NCBI GenBank assembly: GCA_965227295.1
Contig: OZ245742.1
Span: 64,001-128,000, forward strand
DNA length: 64,000 nt
Origin: Leptonemataceae bacterium
Lineage (GTDB): Bacteria > Spirochaetota > Leptospiria > Leptospirales > Leptonemataceae
Direction: 5' to 3'
Shown here: positions 28,606 through 37,066 of the stretch, in pieces
Numbering within the stretch: the stretch's first letter is position 1
Layout: the number at the start of each line of letters is the position of its first letter
Position numbers and translations under genes: made by a program
Notes under the pieces: generated by a model
Database searches by the model: none
What the model saw: the letters and a program-made list of their open reading frames with translations, nothing else
What the model was told of the DNA's origin: nothing

Positions 28606-29502
28606 ATGTTTCTTTCCAGAAAACTTTCCGTACTCGCACTGTGCGTCGTTACGGCTTTCGGCACGAGCGCATGCAGCCTGTTCGGCGGTTCGGACGACGG
28701 TGACGATACCGATCTGCTCGCCCTGGGCAGCCTGGCCGCCCTCGTCGTCTCCAGCAGTTCTACCGTATACACGCTCGACTCATCGACGGGCTGCATCAGC
28801 GGTGTCACCATTTCCATGGACAGTTCGTTGCCGGACTGGATCAAAAACAACTTCACGTGCATGACCGGTACGGTCTCCGGCTCGAACGCCGTATTCAGCA
28901 CGCTTAACCTTCCGAACACGCGGAGCTACTATTACGGAACGTCTTCCCCGCTCTACGAAGCCCTGCCCGGCGGCAATACGCCGGCCGGTAACAACAGCAT
29001 CATCGCCCAGAGCATCAGGATGACCGTGCCCACTTCGCCTTCGCAGAACACCGGTACGCTGACAAGCACGAGCACCGGTGCCATCGGCCTCACCACGAAC
29101 GGTCTGGCCATCTTCAACAACGCCGCGGCACCGGGAGACACCCTCGCCAGCGAGGTGGCCACCTTCGATAACTTCAACGGTCACCCGCAGGAGCAGGGCA
29201 TCTACCATCACCACGCACAGCCGCTGAACCTCACGAACGAATCTTCGGAACTCATCGGCATTGCCCTCGACGGTTTCCCGGTCTACGGACGCAAGTGCGA
29301 CAACGGCACCAGCAGCACCGGCGACGATTTTACACCGGACAGCACCGGCACCAACGTCCTCGATTCCCTGCACGGCCACACATCGGCGACGATTCACTTC
29401 CCGGGCAGCCAGTATCACTACCATGCCGCGCAGGATTCCACGGCGACCATCGTCACGCTCATGGGCTCCTCGTACTACGGCAACACCGGCTCAATTCAGT
29501 AA
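28606..29502 (+). CDS. YHYH-domain lipoprotein (copy 2)
   Basis: TSAC lipobox; FNGHP, GIYHHH, LDGFPVYG, LHGH, QYHYH; RBS aggag. Confidence 0.9.
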   Translation: MFLSRKLSVLALCVVTAFGTSACSLFGGSDDGDDTDLLALGSLAALVVSSSSTVYTLDSSTGCISGVTISMDSSLPDWIKNNFTCMTGTVSGSNAVFSTLNLPNTRSYYYGTSSPLYEALPGGNTPAGNNSIIAQSIRMTVPTSPSQNTGTLTSTSTGAIGLTTNGLAIFNNAAAPGDTLASEVATFDNFNGHPQEQGIYHHHAQPLNLTNESSELIGIALDGFPVYGRKCDNGTSSTGDDFTPDSTGTNVLDSLHGHTSATIHFPGSQYHYHAAQDSTATIVTLMGSSYYGNTGSIQ

Positions 29503-29566: not shown

Positions 29567-30481
29567 ATGAGACTCTACAAACCAGCCGGCATGCTGATGC
29601 TGTGTGTCCTCACGGCCTTCAGCACGAGTGCGTGCAACATCTTCGGTGGCTCCGACGACGGCGACACCGACCTCCTCGCTCTGGGCGGCCTCGCGGCCCT
29701 CGTTGTTTCCTCCAGATCCACGGTATACACCCTGGACTCAACGACGGGTTGCATTACCGGCCAGTCTGTCTCGATGGACAGCAGTCTACCGGACTGGATC
29801 AAGAACAACTTTACCTGCGCCACGGGTACAGTCTCGGGTTCCAACTACGTGTTCACCTCGCTGAATCTTCCGAACACGAACAGCTTCTATTACACCACGG
29901 CCTCACCGCTGTATGAGGCTCTGCCGAGCGGCAACAATTCCGCCGGAACGAACGTGATTTCGGCCCAACCGTTTACGTACACAATTCCGGCATCACCGAC
30001 GCAGAATACCGGCACCTTAACGAGCACCCAGGCCGGGCAGGCTTCCATCGGCCTCACCCGCAACGGTCTGGCCATGTTCAACAATGCCGCGGCTCCGGGG
30101 GACACCCTCGCCTCGGAAGTGGCGACCTTCGATAACTTCAACGGCCACCCGCAATCCAGCGGCATCTACCATCACCACGCCCAACCGTTGAACATTACGA
30201 ACGAAGACTCCAGCCTCGTCGGCATTGCCCTCGACGGTTATCCGGTCTACGGACGCAAGTGCGATAACGGCACCAGCAGCACCGGTGACGACTTCACCCC
30301 GGACAGCACCGGCACGAACGTTCTCGATTCCCTGCACGGCCACACCTCGGCGACGGTCCACTTTCCCGGCGGCACCTATCACTACCATGCCGCGCAGGAT
30401 TCCACGGCGACCATCGTGACTTTGATGGGTTCGAGCTTTTACGGCATCACCGGTTCCACCAGCGGAGTCCAGATTCAATAA
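29567..30481 (+). CDS. YHYH-domain lipoprotein (copy 3)
   Basis: TSAC lipobox; same motifs; long stretches near-identical to copy 2; RBS aggag. Confidence 0.9.
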   Translation: MRLYKPAGMLMLCVLTAFSTSACNIFGGSDDGDTDLLALGGLAALVVSSRSTVYTLDSTTGCITGQSVSMDSSLPDWIKNNFTCATGTVSGSNYVFTSLNLPNTNSFYYTTASPLYEALPSGNNSAGTNVISAQPFTYTIPASPTQNTGTLTSTQAGQASIGLTRNGLAMFNNAAAPGDTLASEVATFDNFNGHPQSSGIYHHHAQPLNITNEDSSLVGIALDGYPVYGRKCDNGTSSTGDDFTPDSTGTNVLDSLHGHTSATVHFPGGTYHYHAAQDSTATIVTLMGSSFYGITGSTSGVQIQ

Positions 30482-30540: not shown

Positions 30541-31116
30541 ATGCCGGCTAAAATCTTACAGATTACGGTTAGCATCGTGCTCCTCACGCTCTGCCACTGC
30601 GGCTCCCGCACGGTCCTTGAGCACAACGACCCCGGTCTGCAAATTCGGAACGACGTCTACCATCACGACGGCACGCCGTTCACCGGAATCATTCGCAGCA
30701 TCGTGCCGGCCGTGGAGATGGTTCGCCTGGTTCCCTATCGCGACGGCCTTGTGCACGGCACGGTGAAGGCGTATCATTCCTCCGGGACGCTCATTGAAAA
30801 GGGCCGCTACGAAGACGGCAAACCCACGGGTGTCCATCGCAGTTGGTACAACGACGGCCAGAATCGCAGCTACGCCGTTTACGAAGACGGTCTGCTGGAA
30901 GGCGAGCGGTGGGTCTGGCACAAGAACGGCCGCGTGTTTCAGTTCCAAACATACGAAGCGGGCAAGATGCGCGCGCACAAGCAGTGGCGCGAAAACGGCC
31001 TCATCTACATGAACTACGTCTACTATACCGACGGCGCGATTGCCGGCCTGCCGGGAAGTAAGGTGTGTGAGCCGGTGAGCAAAGTGACAGAAGCAGAGAC
31101 GGAAAAGGACCTATAA
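30541..31116 (+). CDS. MORN-variant repeat (YwqK-like) lipoprotein
   Basis: LCHC lipobox-like; PFTG, repeated Y.DG..HG...W/Y..G units; PGSKVC tail. Confidence 0.85.
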   Translation: MPAKILQITVSIVLLTLCHCGSRTVLEHNDPGLQIRNDVYHHDGTPFTGIIRSIVPAVEMVRLVPYRDGLVHGTVKAYHSSGTLIEKGRYEDGKPTGVHRSWYNDGQNRSYAVYEDGLLEGERWVWHKNGRVFQFQTYEAGKMRAHKQWRENGLIYMNYVYYTDGAIAGLPGSKVCEPVSKVTEAETEKDL

Positions 31117-31127
31117 TAAATTCTTTT

Positions 31128-31238
31128 GGGGCGTGCCCCTCCGCGCTTCGCGCTCCGGGTCGGGCTGTTCCGCACTCCGCTTCGCTTCGGTCTCGCGAAG
31201 ACGCGAGACTGGCGGCTACGCCGCCATGCTCCGCATCC
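31128..31238 (+). repeat. REP-like multi-hairpin repeat, copy A (left part; interrupted by IS110, right part at 32728-32745)
   Basis: ggggcgtgcccctccgcgcttcgcgctccgggtcgggct...ctccgcttcgcttcggt...gcatcc; shares blocks with 60203-60324 (-) and 60404-60529 (+). Confidence 0.8.
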
Positions 31239-31261
31239 TATATGTCCCCGTGAGGCTGTCG

Positions 31262-31495
31262 GGACGGGGTTTTCCTGGCCATCGAACCGGCGGTGCCGTA
31301 GATGAGTATCGAAGGCTATAGACTCCGGGGAGAACCCACTCGTATCTGTGTGAACCTTAGCCGGGGAAACACTTGTGAGGGCTCTATGTTCCCCCGGAGC
31401 CTATCTCCAATCGATACCACTTATAGTGAGTTTGCCCTGCCTTGCAAGGGTTTCCTGAATATAGGAATCGTGGATGATTTGGAGTGATAGCCTCA
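31262..31495 (+). ncRNA. IS110 bridge RNA (5' hairpin, target-binding loop 31323-31399, donor-binding loop 31401-31490); RNA ends approximate
   Basis: Two stem-bounded internal loops carry segments matching the target (TCGTATCT, GTGAGGG) and the donor junction (ATAGTGAG, ATATAGG). Confidence 0.85.
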
Positions 31496-31506
31496 CCGGA
31501 GGTAGT

Positions 31507-32685
31507 ATGAATCAGACAGTAGCAGGCATCGATTGGAGCGCGCACTTCTTTGACGTGTGCGTATACAGCACGACGGACGGCGTTCTTTACGAAGGCCGAT
31601 TTAACATCGACGGCCCCGGTATCAATCGATTGCTCGGCGTTCTCAAGCGGCACGGACCTATCGAAGCCATCGGGATCGAGGACGGGCGGCAGCTCGTGGC
31701 GAATCGAATGATGCAGCACGGCTATGACGTGCGCACCGTGCATCCGTTTTCCCTGGCGCGCTTCAAAGAAGTCTACGAAACCACCCGCCGCAAAGATGAT
31801 CGCATGGACGCGATGTACATCGCCCGCATGCTCGCCGAGAAACCGCAGGCGTTTCGAAGTATTACGCAGAACAGCCCGGAATGCACGCGGCTGGAAGCGC
31901 TGAACCGTCAGAAGCGCCGCCTGGTCGAGGACCGCAGCCGTTTGCAGAATCGCCTGCGTGCCGTGCTGCGCGGCTATTTTCCCGCGTTTTCCGGCTGTTT
32001 TCAGCGCAACCTGTCGCGGTCGGCCCTGCAATTGCTACAACGCATCGAACGGCCCTCGGTCATCGCCGGACTGAGCCGTGAGGCTTTCCTCGAATACGCA
32101 GAGGGATGCCGATTCAACGGCGCCCGCAAACTTGCGATCTATGAACGTTTAGTAGAGCATACGATTGTCGAAGAGCCCGGCGATATAGAGGAACGCGTGC
32201 TGGAGATGCAGCACCTGGTGCAGATGATGATACTCCACGACATGCAGCTCCAGCAATTACAGGAGTCCATTGATGCCCTCTACGACTCCCATCCCATGGC
32301 CGGCGTGTTTGATTCGATTCCGGGCGTGGCCGGAGACCTGCGCGTTCGCCTGCTGACGGCATTCGGCGACAATCTCAATCGTTTCCGGGACCATCGTGCT
32401 GTGCAGGCGTTCGCCGGAACCGCGCCGATCACGATTCGTAGCGGCAAGCGCGAAGTCGTAACCATGCGCACCGGCTGCAACAAGGCGTTCCGGGATACGC
32501 TCTACCAGCTCGCGTTCACGACGATGGGTCGCCTGCCGTGGGCGCGGGCCCATTACAATCGCCAGAAGGCCGCCGGCAAATCGCACTCAGCAGCACTGCG
32601 CTCCCTCTCGAACAAATGGGTCCCGATCCTGTTTTCCATGTGGCGCGCGAGCGAAATCTACAGCGAAGACCGGCGGGCCGCATGA
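31507..32685 (+). CDS. IS110-family DEDD recombinase/transposase (392 aa)
   Basis: RBS ggaggt; AGIDWS (D), IGIEDG (E), KDDRMDA (DD); C-terminal SIPGV...RF...AFAGTAP..RSGK (catalytic Ser)...GCNKAFR. Confidence 0.95.
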   Translation: MNQTVAGIDWSAHFFDVCVYSTTDGVLYEGRFNIDGPGINRLLGVLKRHGPIEAIGIEDGRQLVANRMMQHGYDVRTVHPFSLARFKEVYETTRRKDDRMDAMYIARMLAEKPQAFRSITQNSPECTRLEALNRQKRRLVEDRSRLQNRLRAVLRGYFPAFSGCFQRNLSRSALQLLQRIERPSVIAGLSREAFLEYAEGCRFNGARKLAIYERLVEHTIVEEPGDIEERVLEMQHLVQMMILHDMQLQQLQESIDALYDSHPMAGVFDSIPGVAGDLRVRLLTAFGDNLNRFRDHRAVQAFAGTAPITIRSGKREVVTMRTGCNKAFRDTLYQLAFTTMGRLPWARAHYNRQKAAGKSHSAALRSLSNKWVPILFSMWRASEIYSEDRRAA

Positions 32686-32704
32686 CCACCGCGTCGGAAT
32701 TTTC

Positions 32705-32710
32705 TTGACG
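32705..32710 (+). promoter_or_regulatory. -35 hexamer (TTGACG) at the IS right end; completed by TATATG from the left end on circularisation
   Basis: In the predicted circle: TTGACG - 17 nt (cggcgacatagtgagcc) - TATATG. Confidence 0.65.
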
Positions 32711-32750
32711 CGGCGACATAGTGAGCCCTCACGCGAAGAGTTGTAACATC

Positions 32751-33446
32751 ATGAAAATCATCCAGACTGTATTCCTCTTAATGTTTGCAGTAGGCCTCCC
32801 GGGCTGCGGCGAGGATGCTCCGCCGTTTCGTCCCGAGGTCGCCGGTTTTTCCGAGCCTCGCGCCGGCATGTTGCCTTACTTCCAGGGCCGCGACATGAAT
32901 CCCTACTGGCCGCCGGAAGACGCGGAGACACTGCCGGAAGACCTGCGGCGGCCGGCGAACTTCACGTTGCTCAGTCACAACGATGCAAAGTTTACTCCGG
33001 ATGATCTTAACGAAAAGTACACGATTCTGAACTTCTTTTTTACGCGCTGCCCGGGCATCTGTCCGCTGATCACCCGCAACGTGAAAAAGGTCTCGGCGCA
33101 GATTCCGAACCAGGCCGATCTTCAGTTCGTTTCGATTTCGGTCACGCCGGAATACGATCGCCCGCCGGAGATGCGCCAGTACCGCGAGGAACACCGCGTC
33201 TCCCAGGCAAACTGGCTCATGCTCACCGGCGAACGCGAACCCATCTACGAAATGGCGCGACTACAGTTCGGCGCCGACGTGCGCACCGACGTCGAAGAAT
33301 TCACGAGTCCCGAGGACTTCGTGCATACGGAGAACGTGTATCTACTGGATCGGCAGGGTTATTTGCGCGGGGTGTATCGCGCACGGGGCATGGGCGACCT
33401 GGAGCGATTGGTGCAGGAGCTGGAGGTTTTGCGGGGGAGTGAATGA
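32751..33446 (+). CDS. SCO1/SenC-family copper chaperone lipoprotein
   Basis: LPGC lipobox; FFFTRCPGICP (CxxxCP); SISVTPEYD; FVHTENVYLLD. Confidence 0.92.
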   Translation: MKIIQTVFLLMFAVGLPGCGEDAPPFRPEVAGFSEPRAGMLPYFQGRDMNPYWPPEDAETLPEDLRRPANFTLLSHNDAKFTPDDLNEKYTILNFFFTRCPGICPLITRNVKKVSAQIPNQADLQFVSISVTPEYDRPPEMRQYREEHRVSQANWLMLTGEREPIYEMARLQFGADVRTDVEEFTSPEDFVHTENVYLLDRQGYLRGVYRARGMGDLERLVQELEVLRGSE

Positions 33447-33874: not shown

Positions 33875-36800
33875 ATGAGGCGCCACCCTAAAGCTAAAGC
33901 GACACTTCTGTCAATAATCATCTGCCTGGCAGGATTACAGCCCAACACGCTCCAGGCACAGGCACCGACCAGCCATGAAATCAATCACGAATGGACTAAT
34001 TTTCGAGCGGCGTATCCTTATCATGTACAAGTAATTGCCGTGAAAGAACGTCTTGCAGACGGCAGCTCACTCTTTATCCTCTCGGAGCCGCCACCTCACG
34101 TTACTCTGGATGGCTTGAAGCAAAGCGCCGGAGTAGAGCTCAGCAACCTCAACGTGCTGGACCATCGCATCGGGTACGATGGATTTCTCCGAGATATTGT
34201 CTTTACGGCAAGACCAGGGACGGGCAACAGCCTGACCACGTTCGTCAGTCGCCTTTCTATATACCTCTATGGCACATCTTACAAAGCAACATTTACCTCC
34301 CTCCCGATCAAGAATCAACAGAGAGGAAACGAACAGTTAGACCTCAGGATCTCGACGTTTGACCTAAAGCAGTGGTCAATTGATAGCAGCGAAAAGTTTG
34401 AACCTGTATTAGGTGGCCGCGCCAGCCCTGTGCAGACACTCCTGCAAGATCCTCGCCCCGGGGTATACCGGAGCGGGAAACCCGGCCTGATTCTCTGGGT
34501 AGTACCTCGAAATGCCAGGCTCGATCAGTATACGCAGGAAATTCGCCAATTCACGCTGGATTCCGATATCGTACTTGGTGCCATAGGAGGGAATCAGGCC
34601 ACTCTCATAGTCGGCCGCGAACGGGTCGCAGCCCTCGAAACTTTGCCTCCGCTGCGAACGGAAACTATCCTGCTGCTGGCGGCGGCGACCTCAAATGAAC
34701 TCGCGCAAAGCTACGAGCGAAACCACTTACTTTCCGGGAAGACAAGGGATGGGAACGATTGGGCACCAATCTACCTCAGCCCCGATTTGATCAATACGGA
34801 ATACGGCAGTCTGCTCAATATCACGGATCAGCTATTAAAGGGTTGGTCCATGAACGGCACAGTGCGATATATCAACTTCGACTACCCGCCCCCGAACACT
34901 GGCTGGCCTTTCCCGAAGCCCCTATCCCAATTGATCAAGGGTTCCAGTGTAACTTTCAACTGGAATACAAAGGGCGTCGGTTATACTGTGGAAGATGGTT
35001 CATATGCGTATTTTGCGCTCAATCGAACCGGCTCACTGCCGATGACTTACATCGCAGAGGAATCCGGCTCTTCTGAATATGATAAGCAAGGCTATGAGTA
35101 TTTTGCGACCCTCAGCGATCCCAATCTCGTGCGCGTAGTTCAGTATGCGGCGCTCTATCAGATATTCCGCCAATTCGATCTAAAGGCCGATACGCCCGGC
35201 ATTATGGGCAGGGGCGCACGGCGCTATCGAGACGCAAACGCTGCACTTGTTCAATCGACCAAGAACGCGCTCATTAAGATTCGCAATGCCAATGAACAGA
35301 TGCTGAAGCAAACGGCGAAGGAAATGGCGGCGGATGACCGTGCGATCCCGGACGACTTAATGCCGCACGTACTGAAGCCGCTTCTGATTTACGTCGGCAT
35401 GGAACAGTTGCGAGCGGAACATCCTGGCGCCACGGAAGAACAACTCTTTGCGACCGTTTCCGCAGCCGTCGACCAGTTATCAGCCGGGCAACTGAAGGAA
35501 ATGAGCGACGAATTGAATGAAAAGATGACCAAAGAACAGCAGCAAGAGCTACGCATGGCGTTCGTCGCGACTATGCTGCAAGCCTCTGTGAACTCTCTTC
35601 AGGAAAAGCTCAATCACCTACCTGGGCCTCTGTGGCCCGACGTAGCAGAAGATCTGGCACGAAACCTGATTAATCCCCGTGAAGAGATCGACACAACCCG
35701 GCTTCAGAAAGTCGCCGAAAGTGAGGACGCATCCGGCTTAGACCATGATACGATGGTCGATTTTGTAGCCGTGTGGATCTTGAACGAACCTTCAAGCCGC
35801 ATCATCGGCACTTTCGCAGATATCGACCGCGCCAAAGCAACATACGTAAAATACGGCCGGTCCGCTGAACAACCTGGATTCATCGTCACCCCGTCGATCG
35901 TCCAGTCCCGTGTAGACGCGAGCATGGCGGGCGCAGTCGGCGGACACAATCTGGATTCGGCAATCACCCGTTTTCGTCCCAGCACGCAAATTAGACGCGG
36001 TTCAGTGAAAATCACGGGCTCGAAGGAAGCCCCGGTCATACTATTCCATCCCGGCGACGCAAAAAAAGTTCAGGCACTTGTGGAGACCGCTGGCAAGCAG
36101 TCCACGGACCCGAATCTGGCCACAAACTTGCAACAAACGCTTAAAAACGCGCCAGTTGTAGGATTGAAACGAGAAGAAGCCCTGGCGCTTGCCGGACGAC
36201 CGGACCGATCGCGCGGGCTCCAGCATCCGAGCCTTGTCAAACTTGGTGACGACATGATTTCCGCTCCCGGGTGGAAACTTGACGTAACGTCACTAAATTC
36301 AGAGGACCGAAACCTGATCAAGGCGATGAACACTTCGTACAATCCAGCGATCGTCGTCCGGAAGAGCAAAGGTGGTACATACGAGGTATTGATGCCGAAC
36401 ACGGATGCAACGATCCGTGTAGGGAATGTCGTGGACCTCTCCGACGCTCTATCGTACACAATTTTCAGGGACACGGACGGCACACGCCCGCTTCACCTTT
36501 CGACAATCGGTTTTTCGGAAGATGAGACCCGCGCGCTCGCTCATACTACGAGCCTACGATTGGAAGCCGCCCGTGACCGCCGAAACGCGAGCGCGTTCTT
36601 CAGCAAATTCGACGAACACATGCCTCCAGGCAAGCAGGCTTCGCCGCGTGCTTTCATAGAAGGCCGGTTCGACTTCGCACACCTGGAAATTTCGAAGCCG
36701 GTCAAGAGTCAGGTCATCTCCACCGGGCCGCGTAGCGGTCAGTACAGTGTCGATGTAGTCGCCAAAATTCCCATCAGCCACGCCGGGAACTCCACACCCT

Positions 36801-37066
36801 TCCAGGTGCAGATTGCGGTCTTCTTCAAGAACGTAGTTTCCAATAGCATTGTAGAGAAAATTCAGACTCTGATTCGGCAGACTTTCAGTAGAGCCGCCGC
36901 ACAGAAGCTTTCCAACGACGCTACCATGCAGGCCCTGGAGACAGACTTACGGCAGGCTGGCCTCGACGCGGAAATCAGGGCCCAGGGAGAGCAATTCGAT
37001 TCCTTCTTCGTTCGGTTCAAACAGGTTGAGCATGAGTCTAGCAACTACGCTTACGCGTCCCGATAA
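33875..37066 (+). CDS. Large exported hypothetical protein (1063 aa)
   Basis: Sec-type signal (..LQAQA); long open frame; atypical, less GC3-biased codons; motifs ELAQSYER, DWAPIYLS, TEYGSLLNITDQLLK, VGGHNL. Confidence 0.8.
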   Translation: MRRHPKAKATLLSIIICLAGLQPNTLQAQAPTSHEINHEWTNFRAAYPYHVQVIAVKERLADGSSLFILSEPPPHVTLDGLKQSAGVELSNLNVLDHRIGYDGFLRDIVFTARPGTGNSLTTFVSRLSIYLYGTSYKATFTSLPIKNQQRGNEQLDLRISTFDLKQWSIDSSEKFEPVLGGRASPVQTLLQDPRPGVYRSGKPGLILWVVPRNARLDQYTQEIRQFTLDSDIVLGAIGGNQATLIVGRERVAALETLPPLRTETILLLAAATSNELAQSYERNHLLSGKTRDGNDWAPIYLSPDLINTEYGSLLNITDQLLKGWSMNGTVRYINFDYPPPNTGWPFPKPLSQLIKGSSVTFNWNTKGVGYTVEDGSYAYFALNRTGSLPMTYIAEESGSSEYDKQGYEYFATLSDPNLVRVVQYAALYQIFRQFDLKADTPGIMGRGARRYRDANAALVQSTKNALIKIRNANEQMLKQTAKEMAADDRAIPDDLMPHVLKPLLIYVGMEQLRAEHPGATEEQLFATVSAAVDQLSAGQLKEMSDELNEKMTKEQQQELRMAFVATMLQASVNSLQEKLNHLPGPLWPDVAEDLARNLINPREEIDTTRLQKVAESEDASGLDHDTMVDFVAVWILNEPSSRIIGTFADIDRAKATYVKYGRSAEQPGFIVTPSIVQSRVDASMAGAVGGHNLDSAITRFRPSTQIRRGSVKITGSKEAPVILFHPGDAKKVQALVETAGKQSTDPNLATNLQQTLKNAPVVGLKREEALALAGRPDRSRGLQHPSLVKLGDDMISAPGWKLDVTSLNSEDRNLIKAMNTSYNPAIVVRKSKGGTYEVLMPNTDATIRVGNVVDLSDALSYTIFRDTDGTRPLHLSTIGFSEDETRALAHTTSLRLEAARDRRNASAFFSKFDEHMPPGKQASPRAFIEGRFDFAHLEISKPVKSQVISTGPRSGQYSVDVVAKIPISHAGNSTPFQVQIAVFFKNVVSNSIVEKIQTLIRQTFSRAAAQKLSNDATMQALETDLRQAGLDAEIRAQGEQFDSFFVRFKQVEHESSNYAYASR

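Follow-up and report, generated by a model that had tools for sequence, protein, structure and literature searches.

The 64,000-nucleotide window (the whole stretch of DNA that was analyzed) carries an IS110-family element at positions 31239-32727, 1489 bp long when one copy of its core is counted. All features of the element and of the repeat that it interrupts lie on the forward strand (+). The recombinase gene, encoding 392 amino acids, occupies 31507-32685 as an open frame from an ATG at 31507 to a stop codon at 32685. Its ribosome-binding site, GGAGG (31498-31502), is recognizable in the sequence 4 nt 5' of the start codon. The gene lies between a non-coding left end of 268 nt and a right end of 42 nt. 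Such a long left end and short right end, with no long terminal inverted repeats, are as in the IS110 group. The GC content is 58.7% in the element and 59.4% in the window. No other copies were found in the 5.94-Mb genome, and the copy number of the element is one.

The recombinase has the two Pfam domains DEDD_Tnp_IS110 (PF01548, 3e-27, residues 6-159) and Transposase_20 (PF02371, 2.5e-14, residues 268-350). At E ≤ 0.01 the PDB gave matches to only two proteins, the transposases of IS621 (6.4e-9) and ISCro4 (4.3e-8). In an alignment of 32 homologous sequences residues D9, E58, D98, D101, S312, and G313 are invariant, and the SG of the recombinase lines up with ESG in the IS621 chain. The catalytic residues of IS621 are described as D11, E60, D102, D105, and S241-G242 of the Tnp loop (PMC11208158). 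The original prediction had judged that the element appears intact. At the level of sequence this holds, with the frame open and D9, E58, D98, D101, and S312 in invariant columns.

A search of 5.8 billion proteins gave as best non-self match a protein of 71% identity (P0002), encoded on a 1505-bp contig, and the start codon at 31507 agrees with that of this relative. All other proteins in the search were at most 34% identical. With the protein as query no match to the recombinase was found in 40 other genomes of the same genus, family, or order. Close relatives were likewise absent from the genome collection and, when the protein alone served as query, from the metagenome collection.

Two tandem paralogous lipoprotein-like genes are found at 28606-29502 and 29567-30481, the second with a YHYH domain (PF14240, 3.3e-25). 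An SCO1/SenC-family gene (PF02630, 1.9e-25) runs in the same direction as the recombinase gene, and its start codon lies 23 bases after the end of the element (32727-32753). Because the element adjoins the start of this gene, the insertion separates the gene from its former upstream sequence. A 1063-residue open frame at 33875-37066 had no Pfam match at E ≤ 0.001.

Host repeat and element boundaries

On its left the element interrupts a REP-like dispersed host repeat, the left part of which occupies 31117-31238 and gave 118 blastn rows in the same genome. The repeat unit is ∼120 nt long (122 nt in the left flank) and is made of GC-rich hairpins. The insertion point is 13 nt short of the end of the repeat. 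One of the GC-rich stem-loops, TGGCGG-CTAC-GCCGCCA, ends 4 nt 5' of the target.

As a single-copy element offers no comparison between copies, the host repeat was used to place the boundaries, which were set by comparison with uninterrupted repeat copies and without use of the guides described below. Of the 118 blastn rows, 38 extend to the end of the left-flank query, which is the end of the target. Uninterrupted copies, such as that near C1:3205622, read ...CCGCAT-CC-CTCACGCGAAGAG, with CCGCATCC followed directly by CTCACGCGAAGAG. At the insertion, the left target CCGCAT and the left copy of the CC core (31237-38) together occupy 31231-31238 and correspond to CCGCATCC of the uninterrupted repeats. 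The 13 bases at 32728-32740, CTCACGCGAAGAG, comprise the right target CTCAC and what is left of the repeat beyond the insertion, and the same 13 bases are present in the uninterrupted copies. The feature at 32718-32727 consists of the donor-left sequence ATAGTGAG (32718-25) and the right copy of the CC core (32726-27). When the two junctions are compared with empty repeat copies only CC is common to both, and the duplication is this 2-nt core. It follows that the target is CCGCAT-CC-CTCAC, that the joined donor is ATAGTGAG-CC-TATAT, and that the element spans 31239-32727.

The exact 13-mer CCGCATCCCTCAC is present and unoccupied at one site in the genome. Another 13-nt site shows a single difference, which is at a wobble-compatible position. 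The tails of the repeat vary within the genome (...CGCATCC-CTCAC, ...CCAATCC-CTGGC, ...GGATCG-CTAAC, and others), and relatives of the element appear to differ in which of these variants they target.

Among the 40 other genomes of the same genus, family, or order no orthologous empty site was found, and the left-flank query matched repeat fragments only. Two sequencing runs, possibly of the source sample, contain the stretch, and none of the runs listed for it is of RNA. In metagenome run X3 short contigs that are ∼87-94% alike cover 31227-32739, reaching 12 nt beyond each end of the element. No joints for the element locus were detected in the contigs of the sequencing runs, a type of data in which rare circles would escape notice. 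One sequencing-run record that connects 31196 to 32726 was considered as an excision product and was rejected, as it matches a paralogous repeat copy.

Guides and folding of the left-end leader

Four short segments of the left end correspond to the two halves of the target and the two halves of the donor. The guide for the left target (LTG) is TCGTATCT (RNA UCGUAUCU) at 31340-31347. It reads the left target and the core on the bottom strand and, relative to CCGCATCC, has five identities and three C>U differences. These differences are accounted for by wobble pairing between an RNA U and a bottom-strand G. The guide for the right target (RTG), GTGAGGG at 31375-31381, is the exact reverse complement of CC plus CTCAC (32728-32) and reads the top strand. 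The guide for the left donor (LDG) extends over 31423-31432. Its first part (31423-30) is ATAGTGAG, equal to 32718-25, and is followed by 2 nt over the core; it reads the bottom strand, with the core met via two U:G pairs. The guide for the right donor (RDG), ATATAGG at 31459-31465, reads the top strand and reverse-complements CC plus TATAT (31239-43) without a mismatch. Thus the CC core is included in all four guides, the left guides reading the bottom strand and the right guides the top strand. The second C of the core is met by U in both left guides (LTG ends in CU and LDG in UU, against CC), giving a U:G pair, and its first C is met by C in LTG and by U in LDG.

The original prediction had placed guides at these four positions and had assigned the first pair to the target and the second to the donor. 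All of its coordinates and strings are present in the sequence. RTG, RDG, and LDG proved exact, LTG consists of 5 identities and 3 U:G pairs, and the target and donor assignment was confirmed once the uninterrupted host-repeat copies had fixed the boundaries.

The frequency of such matches by chance was estimated with 20,000 dinucleotide-preserving shuffles of 31247-31506. In the real 260-nt left end RTG, RDG, and LDG are each found once. RTG occurred in 1084 of the 20,000 shuffles (5.4%), RDG in 434, and LDG in 138. At least two exact guides were present together in 59 shuffles and all three in none (0/20000). An 8-nt pairing of the LTG type, with wobble allowed, was found in 3839 shuffles (19%), and LTG by itself is therefore weak evidence. 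The guide set as a whole, with its right order, strands, and loops, is not the product of chance.

Handshake guides are described as lying 3' of RTG and RDG and as complementing positions 6-7 of the other substrate (PMC11208158). At the expected place after RTG the dinucleotide CU (31382-83) complements AG of the donor (32724-25) at both positions. After RDG, AA (31466-67) complements the target at one of two positions, the first A with T31236 and the second unpaired. Both segments are too short for statistics.

The guides are located in the internal loops of two predicted stem-loops. The putative target-binding stem-loop spans 31323-31399, with a closing stem of 31323-35/31388-99 and an inner hairpin at 31348-73. 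The putative donor-binding stem-loop spans 31401-31490, with a closing stem of 31401-20/31470-90 and an inner hairpin at 31434-51. The segment containing the target-binding fold (31320-31400) has a predicted energy of −32.8 kcal/mol and a z-score of −2.56, with 2 of 200 shuffles as good. The donor-binding segment (31400-31492) gave −25.2 kcal/mol and a z-score of −1.69, with 13 of 200 shuffles as good. Both segments fold with the closing stems and inner hairpins of the original prediction. The latter had also proposed a 5' hairpin at 31280-31304. A hairpin is indeed predicted at about this position (−9.7 kcal/mol), but with a z-score of −0.53 it is no better than shuffled sequence (53 of 200 shuffles equal it), and it lacks clear conservation in the sole alignable relative, L093 (below). 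A search of 30800-33000 against the Rfam 15 families gave no match at E ≤ 1, a negative that carries little weight.

In a consensus fold the two ends of the leader pair with each other. This leader-closing helix joins GUGAGGC (31250-31256) to GCCUCAC (31490-96) and is found in a shifted register in L093. It has 7 bp, or ∼12 bp when G:U pairs are counted, lies directly upstream of the ribosome-binding site, and competes through its outer part with the bottom of the donor-loop stem. On this model the helix might couple folding of the bridge RNA to translation of the recombinase.

A 6-bp subterminal inverted repeat, TATGTC (31241-31246) and GACATA (32715-32720), flanks the donor. Short subterminal inverted repeats flanking the programmable donor are described for the IS110 group (PMC11208160). 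The left end also contains a −10-like hexamer, TATATG (31239-31244), and the right end a −35-like hexamer, TTGACG (32705-32710). When the right end is joined to the left end on a circle these hexamers form TTGACG-N17-TATATG, a sigma-70-like arrangement that exists only on the circular junction. It has 9 of 12 matches, and its sixth −10 position lacks the consensus T. In the integrated state no promoter-like site of this kind was found within 31000-32900. From its sequence, TTGACG-N17-TATATG is a candidate junction promoter.

Relatives of the element

The closest relative with an alignable leader is L093, a partial metagenome locus that includes the first 73 residues of a recombinase with 58% amino acid identity. 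It was found in the metagenome collection with a two-sequence alignment as query. Between the element and L093 the target guides vary and the donor guides are constant, the letters of LDG and RDG being the same in both. LTG of L093 is UCCAAUCU in the same columns as UCGUAUCU of the element, and RTG is GCCAGGG instead of GUGAGGG. The left flank of L093 is also REP-like and has the sequence ...TCCAATCC, with no gap before the element end TATGTC. L093 LTG matches this flank, its own, at seven of eight positions and has in addition the same U:G at the second base of the core. From RTG, the right target of L093 is predicted to be CC-CTGGC, the contig stopping short of the right flank. A repeat variant, ...CTCCAATCC-CTGGCGCG, is present in the genome that carries our element. 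After RDG, L093 has AU, which is the full complement of its own ..AT.

RNAalifold analysis of the two leaders (n = 2) gave a consensus of 72 pairs, of which 6 are changed on both sides and none is broken. The closing stem of the target-binding loop has one compensatory change from U-A to C-G between the element and L093, and further compensatory changes occur in its inner hairpin. The closing stem of the donor-binding loop has one compensatory change from A-U to G-C, and there is another in its inner hairpin. A further segment, CGTGAGG (31249-55), was considered as a second guide for the right target and was rejected. It is kept in L093 despite the different right target predicted there, and for this reason it is read as an arm of the leader-closing helix.

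A more distant set of 80 loci, mostly from Actinomycetota and with ∼30% identity, was examined by crude fixed-geometry scans in which our own element was counted. A combined LDG, RTG, and RDG score of at least 21/22 was reached by 11 of 71 usable loci (10 of 70 without our element), compared with 1 of 140 downstream-swapped controls. The other 60 of the 71 loci scored lower, and most distant relatives thus lack clean guide matches in a scan of fixed geometry. For RTG the right end was placed by LDG alone. All seven positions matched in 7 of 59 loci (6 of 58 without our element), compared with 0.1% of 3338 permuted pairings, and at least six matched in 12 of 59 loci, compared with 3.2% of the permuted pairings. 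For LTG at least six of seven positions matched in 9 of 26 loci, compared with 6.2% of 648 permuted pairings. The distant relatives thus show an enrichment of guide-to-flank matches, not a rule. An earlier self-consistency scan, with one mismatch allowed per guide, was equally noisy in real loci (16 of 81) and controls (32 of 241) and had mis-anchored one locus, L052; the geometry-restricted scans replaced it. The original prediction had expected guides to covary with targets among homologs, and this was not refuted. LTG of L093 matches its own flank, and the distant relatives exceed permuted controls.

One Verrucomicrobiae assembly contains three related copies (L017, L018, and L022) that share the donor guides GAGAGAAC.. 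and GTATCAG. L017 on the one hand and L018 and L022 on the other have two different pairs of target guides, each matching its own flanks. Judged from these matches, the three copies exemplify natural retargeting inside a single genome.

The leaders of the actinobacterial loci (alignment A5) have a poor consensus structure, and our leader cannot be aligned with them by sequence. In A5, LDG (..GATG, columns 145-148) and RDG (CATT.., columns 188-191) are partly complementary to each other, probably as a consequence of the donor's subterminal inverted repeat.

Proposed function and relation to known IS110 systems

Bridge RNAs have been predicted in 85.7% of IS110 elements (PMC11208160). As defined in the reports on IS621, a bridge RNA is encoded in the left end and has two loops, the target loop preceding the donor loop, with the core included in every pairing. 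Its left guides read the bottom strand and its right guides the top strand, its first loop is variable and its second conserved, and its promoter arises on the circle (PMC11208160, PMC11208158).

The element shares with IS621 of E. coli a DEDD RuvC-like domain together with a Tnp domain containing the catalytic Ser. In both, the RNA is placed in a long left end upstream of the gene, with the target loop first and the donor loop second, and the strand rule and the presence of the core in every guide are the same. Also shared are a short subterminal inverted repeat and a target in a repetitive extragenic element. The bases that follow RTG and RDG on their 3' side are candidate handshake guides as in IS621, and the site formed on the circle junction is a candidate for the split promoter of IS621. 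The original prediction had recognized an IS110 bridge-RNA architecture. That assignment agrees with the Pfam domains, with the IS621 and ISCro4 matches, with the location of the RNA upstream of the gene, and with the presence of the core in the guides and the strands that they read.

There are also clear differences from IS621. The two proteins align weakly (E = 6.4e-9), mainly over residues 244-382, and our protein has 392 residues compared with 328 in the IS621 chain. Between the aligned blocks it has about 80 more residues (∼127 versus ∼48). The core is CC rather than the CT of IS621, in which T is described as nearly invariant (PMC11208158), and the left guides, unlike those of IS621, read the second base of the core through U:G. 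Whereas the right guides of IS621 have 4 bp and its RDG is discontiguous, those of our element are contiguous 7-mers. The two loops are of 77 and 90 nt, compared with 65 and 68 nt in IS621. An IS621-type bridge RNA has a 5' stem-loop before both loops; the corresponding feature is uncertain here. The long-range helix that closes the leader, on the other hand, is a feature of our element and not of IS621.

We consider it about 90% probable, from the sequence evidence, that an IS110-group insertion sequence with its structure intact occupies 31239-32727 and that a bispecific bridge RNA is encoded in its left end. Of the two internal loops, the first (LTG 31340-47, RTG 31375-81) would read CCGCAT-CC-CTCAC in the tail of the REP-like repeat. 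The second (LDG 31423-32, RDG 31459-65) would read the joined ends of the element, ATAGTGAG-CC-TATAT. By analogy with IS621, excision would join the right end to the left end. The junction would set TTGACG 17 nt from TATATG, and from there the RNA, and probably the recombinase too, would be transcribed. A tetramer of the DEDD/Ser recombinase would hold both loops, cleave beside the core via a phosphoserine intermediate, and exchange the strands, and the circle would be inserted into a matching copy of the repeat. Transcription, binding of RNA to protein, catalysis, and present-day activity are what we infer from that analogy.

The same identity would hold if the element were a quiescent or dead relic that no longer excises or inserts in this host. 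We regard this as unlikely. It would fit the single copy in a 5.9-Mb genome in which an exact 13-nt target is left unoccupied and another site differs at a wobble-compatible position only, and it would fit the lack of a match to the protein query in the genomes of 40 relatives. The dependence of LTG on wobbles at its site and the imperfect promoter-like site at the junction also point in this direction. Against it, the frame of 392 codons is open with all five catalytic positions kept, and both loops, the stems, and the guides are intact. A low copy number is usual for site-specific insertion sequences and so is no sign of inactivity, and rare circles would be invisible in contig data.

It is highly improbable that the repeats in the left end are instead subterminal transposase binding sites acting at the DNA level, with no RNA involved. 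LDG and RDG repeat the element's own ends, as protein-binding sites also would, but two of the four matches are to flanking DNA of the host and not to the element. The matches are located in internal loops of stems that have compensatory changes, and the guide that matches the flank changes with the flank both in L093 and between L017 and L018/L022. Furthermore, the RNA mechanism of the IS110 family is reported as experimentally established for IS621 (PMC11208160, PMC11208158). Complementarity by chance in GC-rich sequence can be practically dismissed, since single guides are not rare in shuffles (RTG, 5.4%; LTG-type pairing, 19%) but three exact guides never coincided in 20,000 of them, the order, strands, and loops are all correct, and the boundaries were fixed independently of the guides.

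Taken as an intact element with a bispecific bridge RNA, the locus reads as a well-preserved and decodable addition to the known class of IS110 bridge RNAs, and its clade may already figure in the supplementary tables of PMC11208160. Knowledge of the class itself, a system first described in 2024, is unchanged. As the guides, the core, the donor, and an unoccupied target can all be read from the sequence, the element is a convenient test case. With a recombinase distant from IS621 and with CC in place of CT as its core, it could also broaden the range of cores for bridge recombination.

More tentatively, the element and L093 might form a small, deeply divergent IS110 subclade with a CC core, a U:G reading of the core, and a leader-closing helix, a grouping that we think rather doubtful. 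The divergence is seen in the finding of one protein of >34% identity among 5.8 billion. As to the U:G reading, LTG ends in CU in both members, and the UU letters of LDG are identical, the L093 contig being without its right end. Should the three features prove functional, the subclade would represent a bridge system that is orthogonal and follows another core rule.

Among named protein relatives the nearest are IS117-type ("minicircle") and related actinobacterial IS110 elements, with ∼27-34% identity and lengths of ∼400-430 residues. The IS117-type name is the source label on one of them (P0026). They share with our element the order and spacing of the guides, with 42-48 nt from RTG to LDG and 26-42 nt from LDG to RDG, and a short right end in which the core lies 19-50 nt after the stop codon. 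The donor differs, being ...TGGGATGT-CT-AATGG in most actinobacterial loci and ATAGTGAG-CC-TATAT in our element. The elements of the IS1111 group (seekRNA elements) share the recombinase family and the RNA-guided logic described for them (PMC11208160, PMC13604230). In these elements the RNA is encoded downstream of the gene, in a long right end, and the subterminal repeats are longer, whereas our element has its RNA upstream and a right end of 42 nt.

ISPpu10 and ISPpu9 of Pseudomonas putida are IS110-family elements described as inserting into repetitive extragenic sequences, as is the case here, and our element is another IS110 element that homes to a REP-like repeat with a stem-loop beside the paired site. 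The target of ISPpu10 is reported to include a GC-rich stem-loop 5' of the paired site (10.64898/2026.03.19.712850, PMC12288879). The stem-loop that ends 4 nt before our target may have a similar role, as a parallel only.
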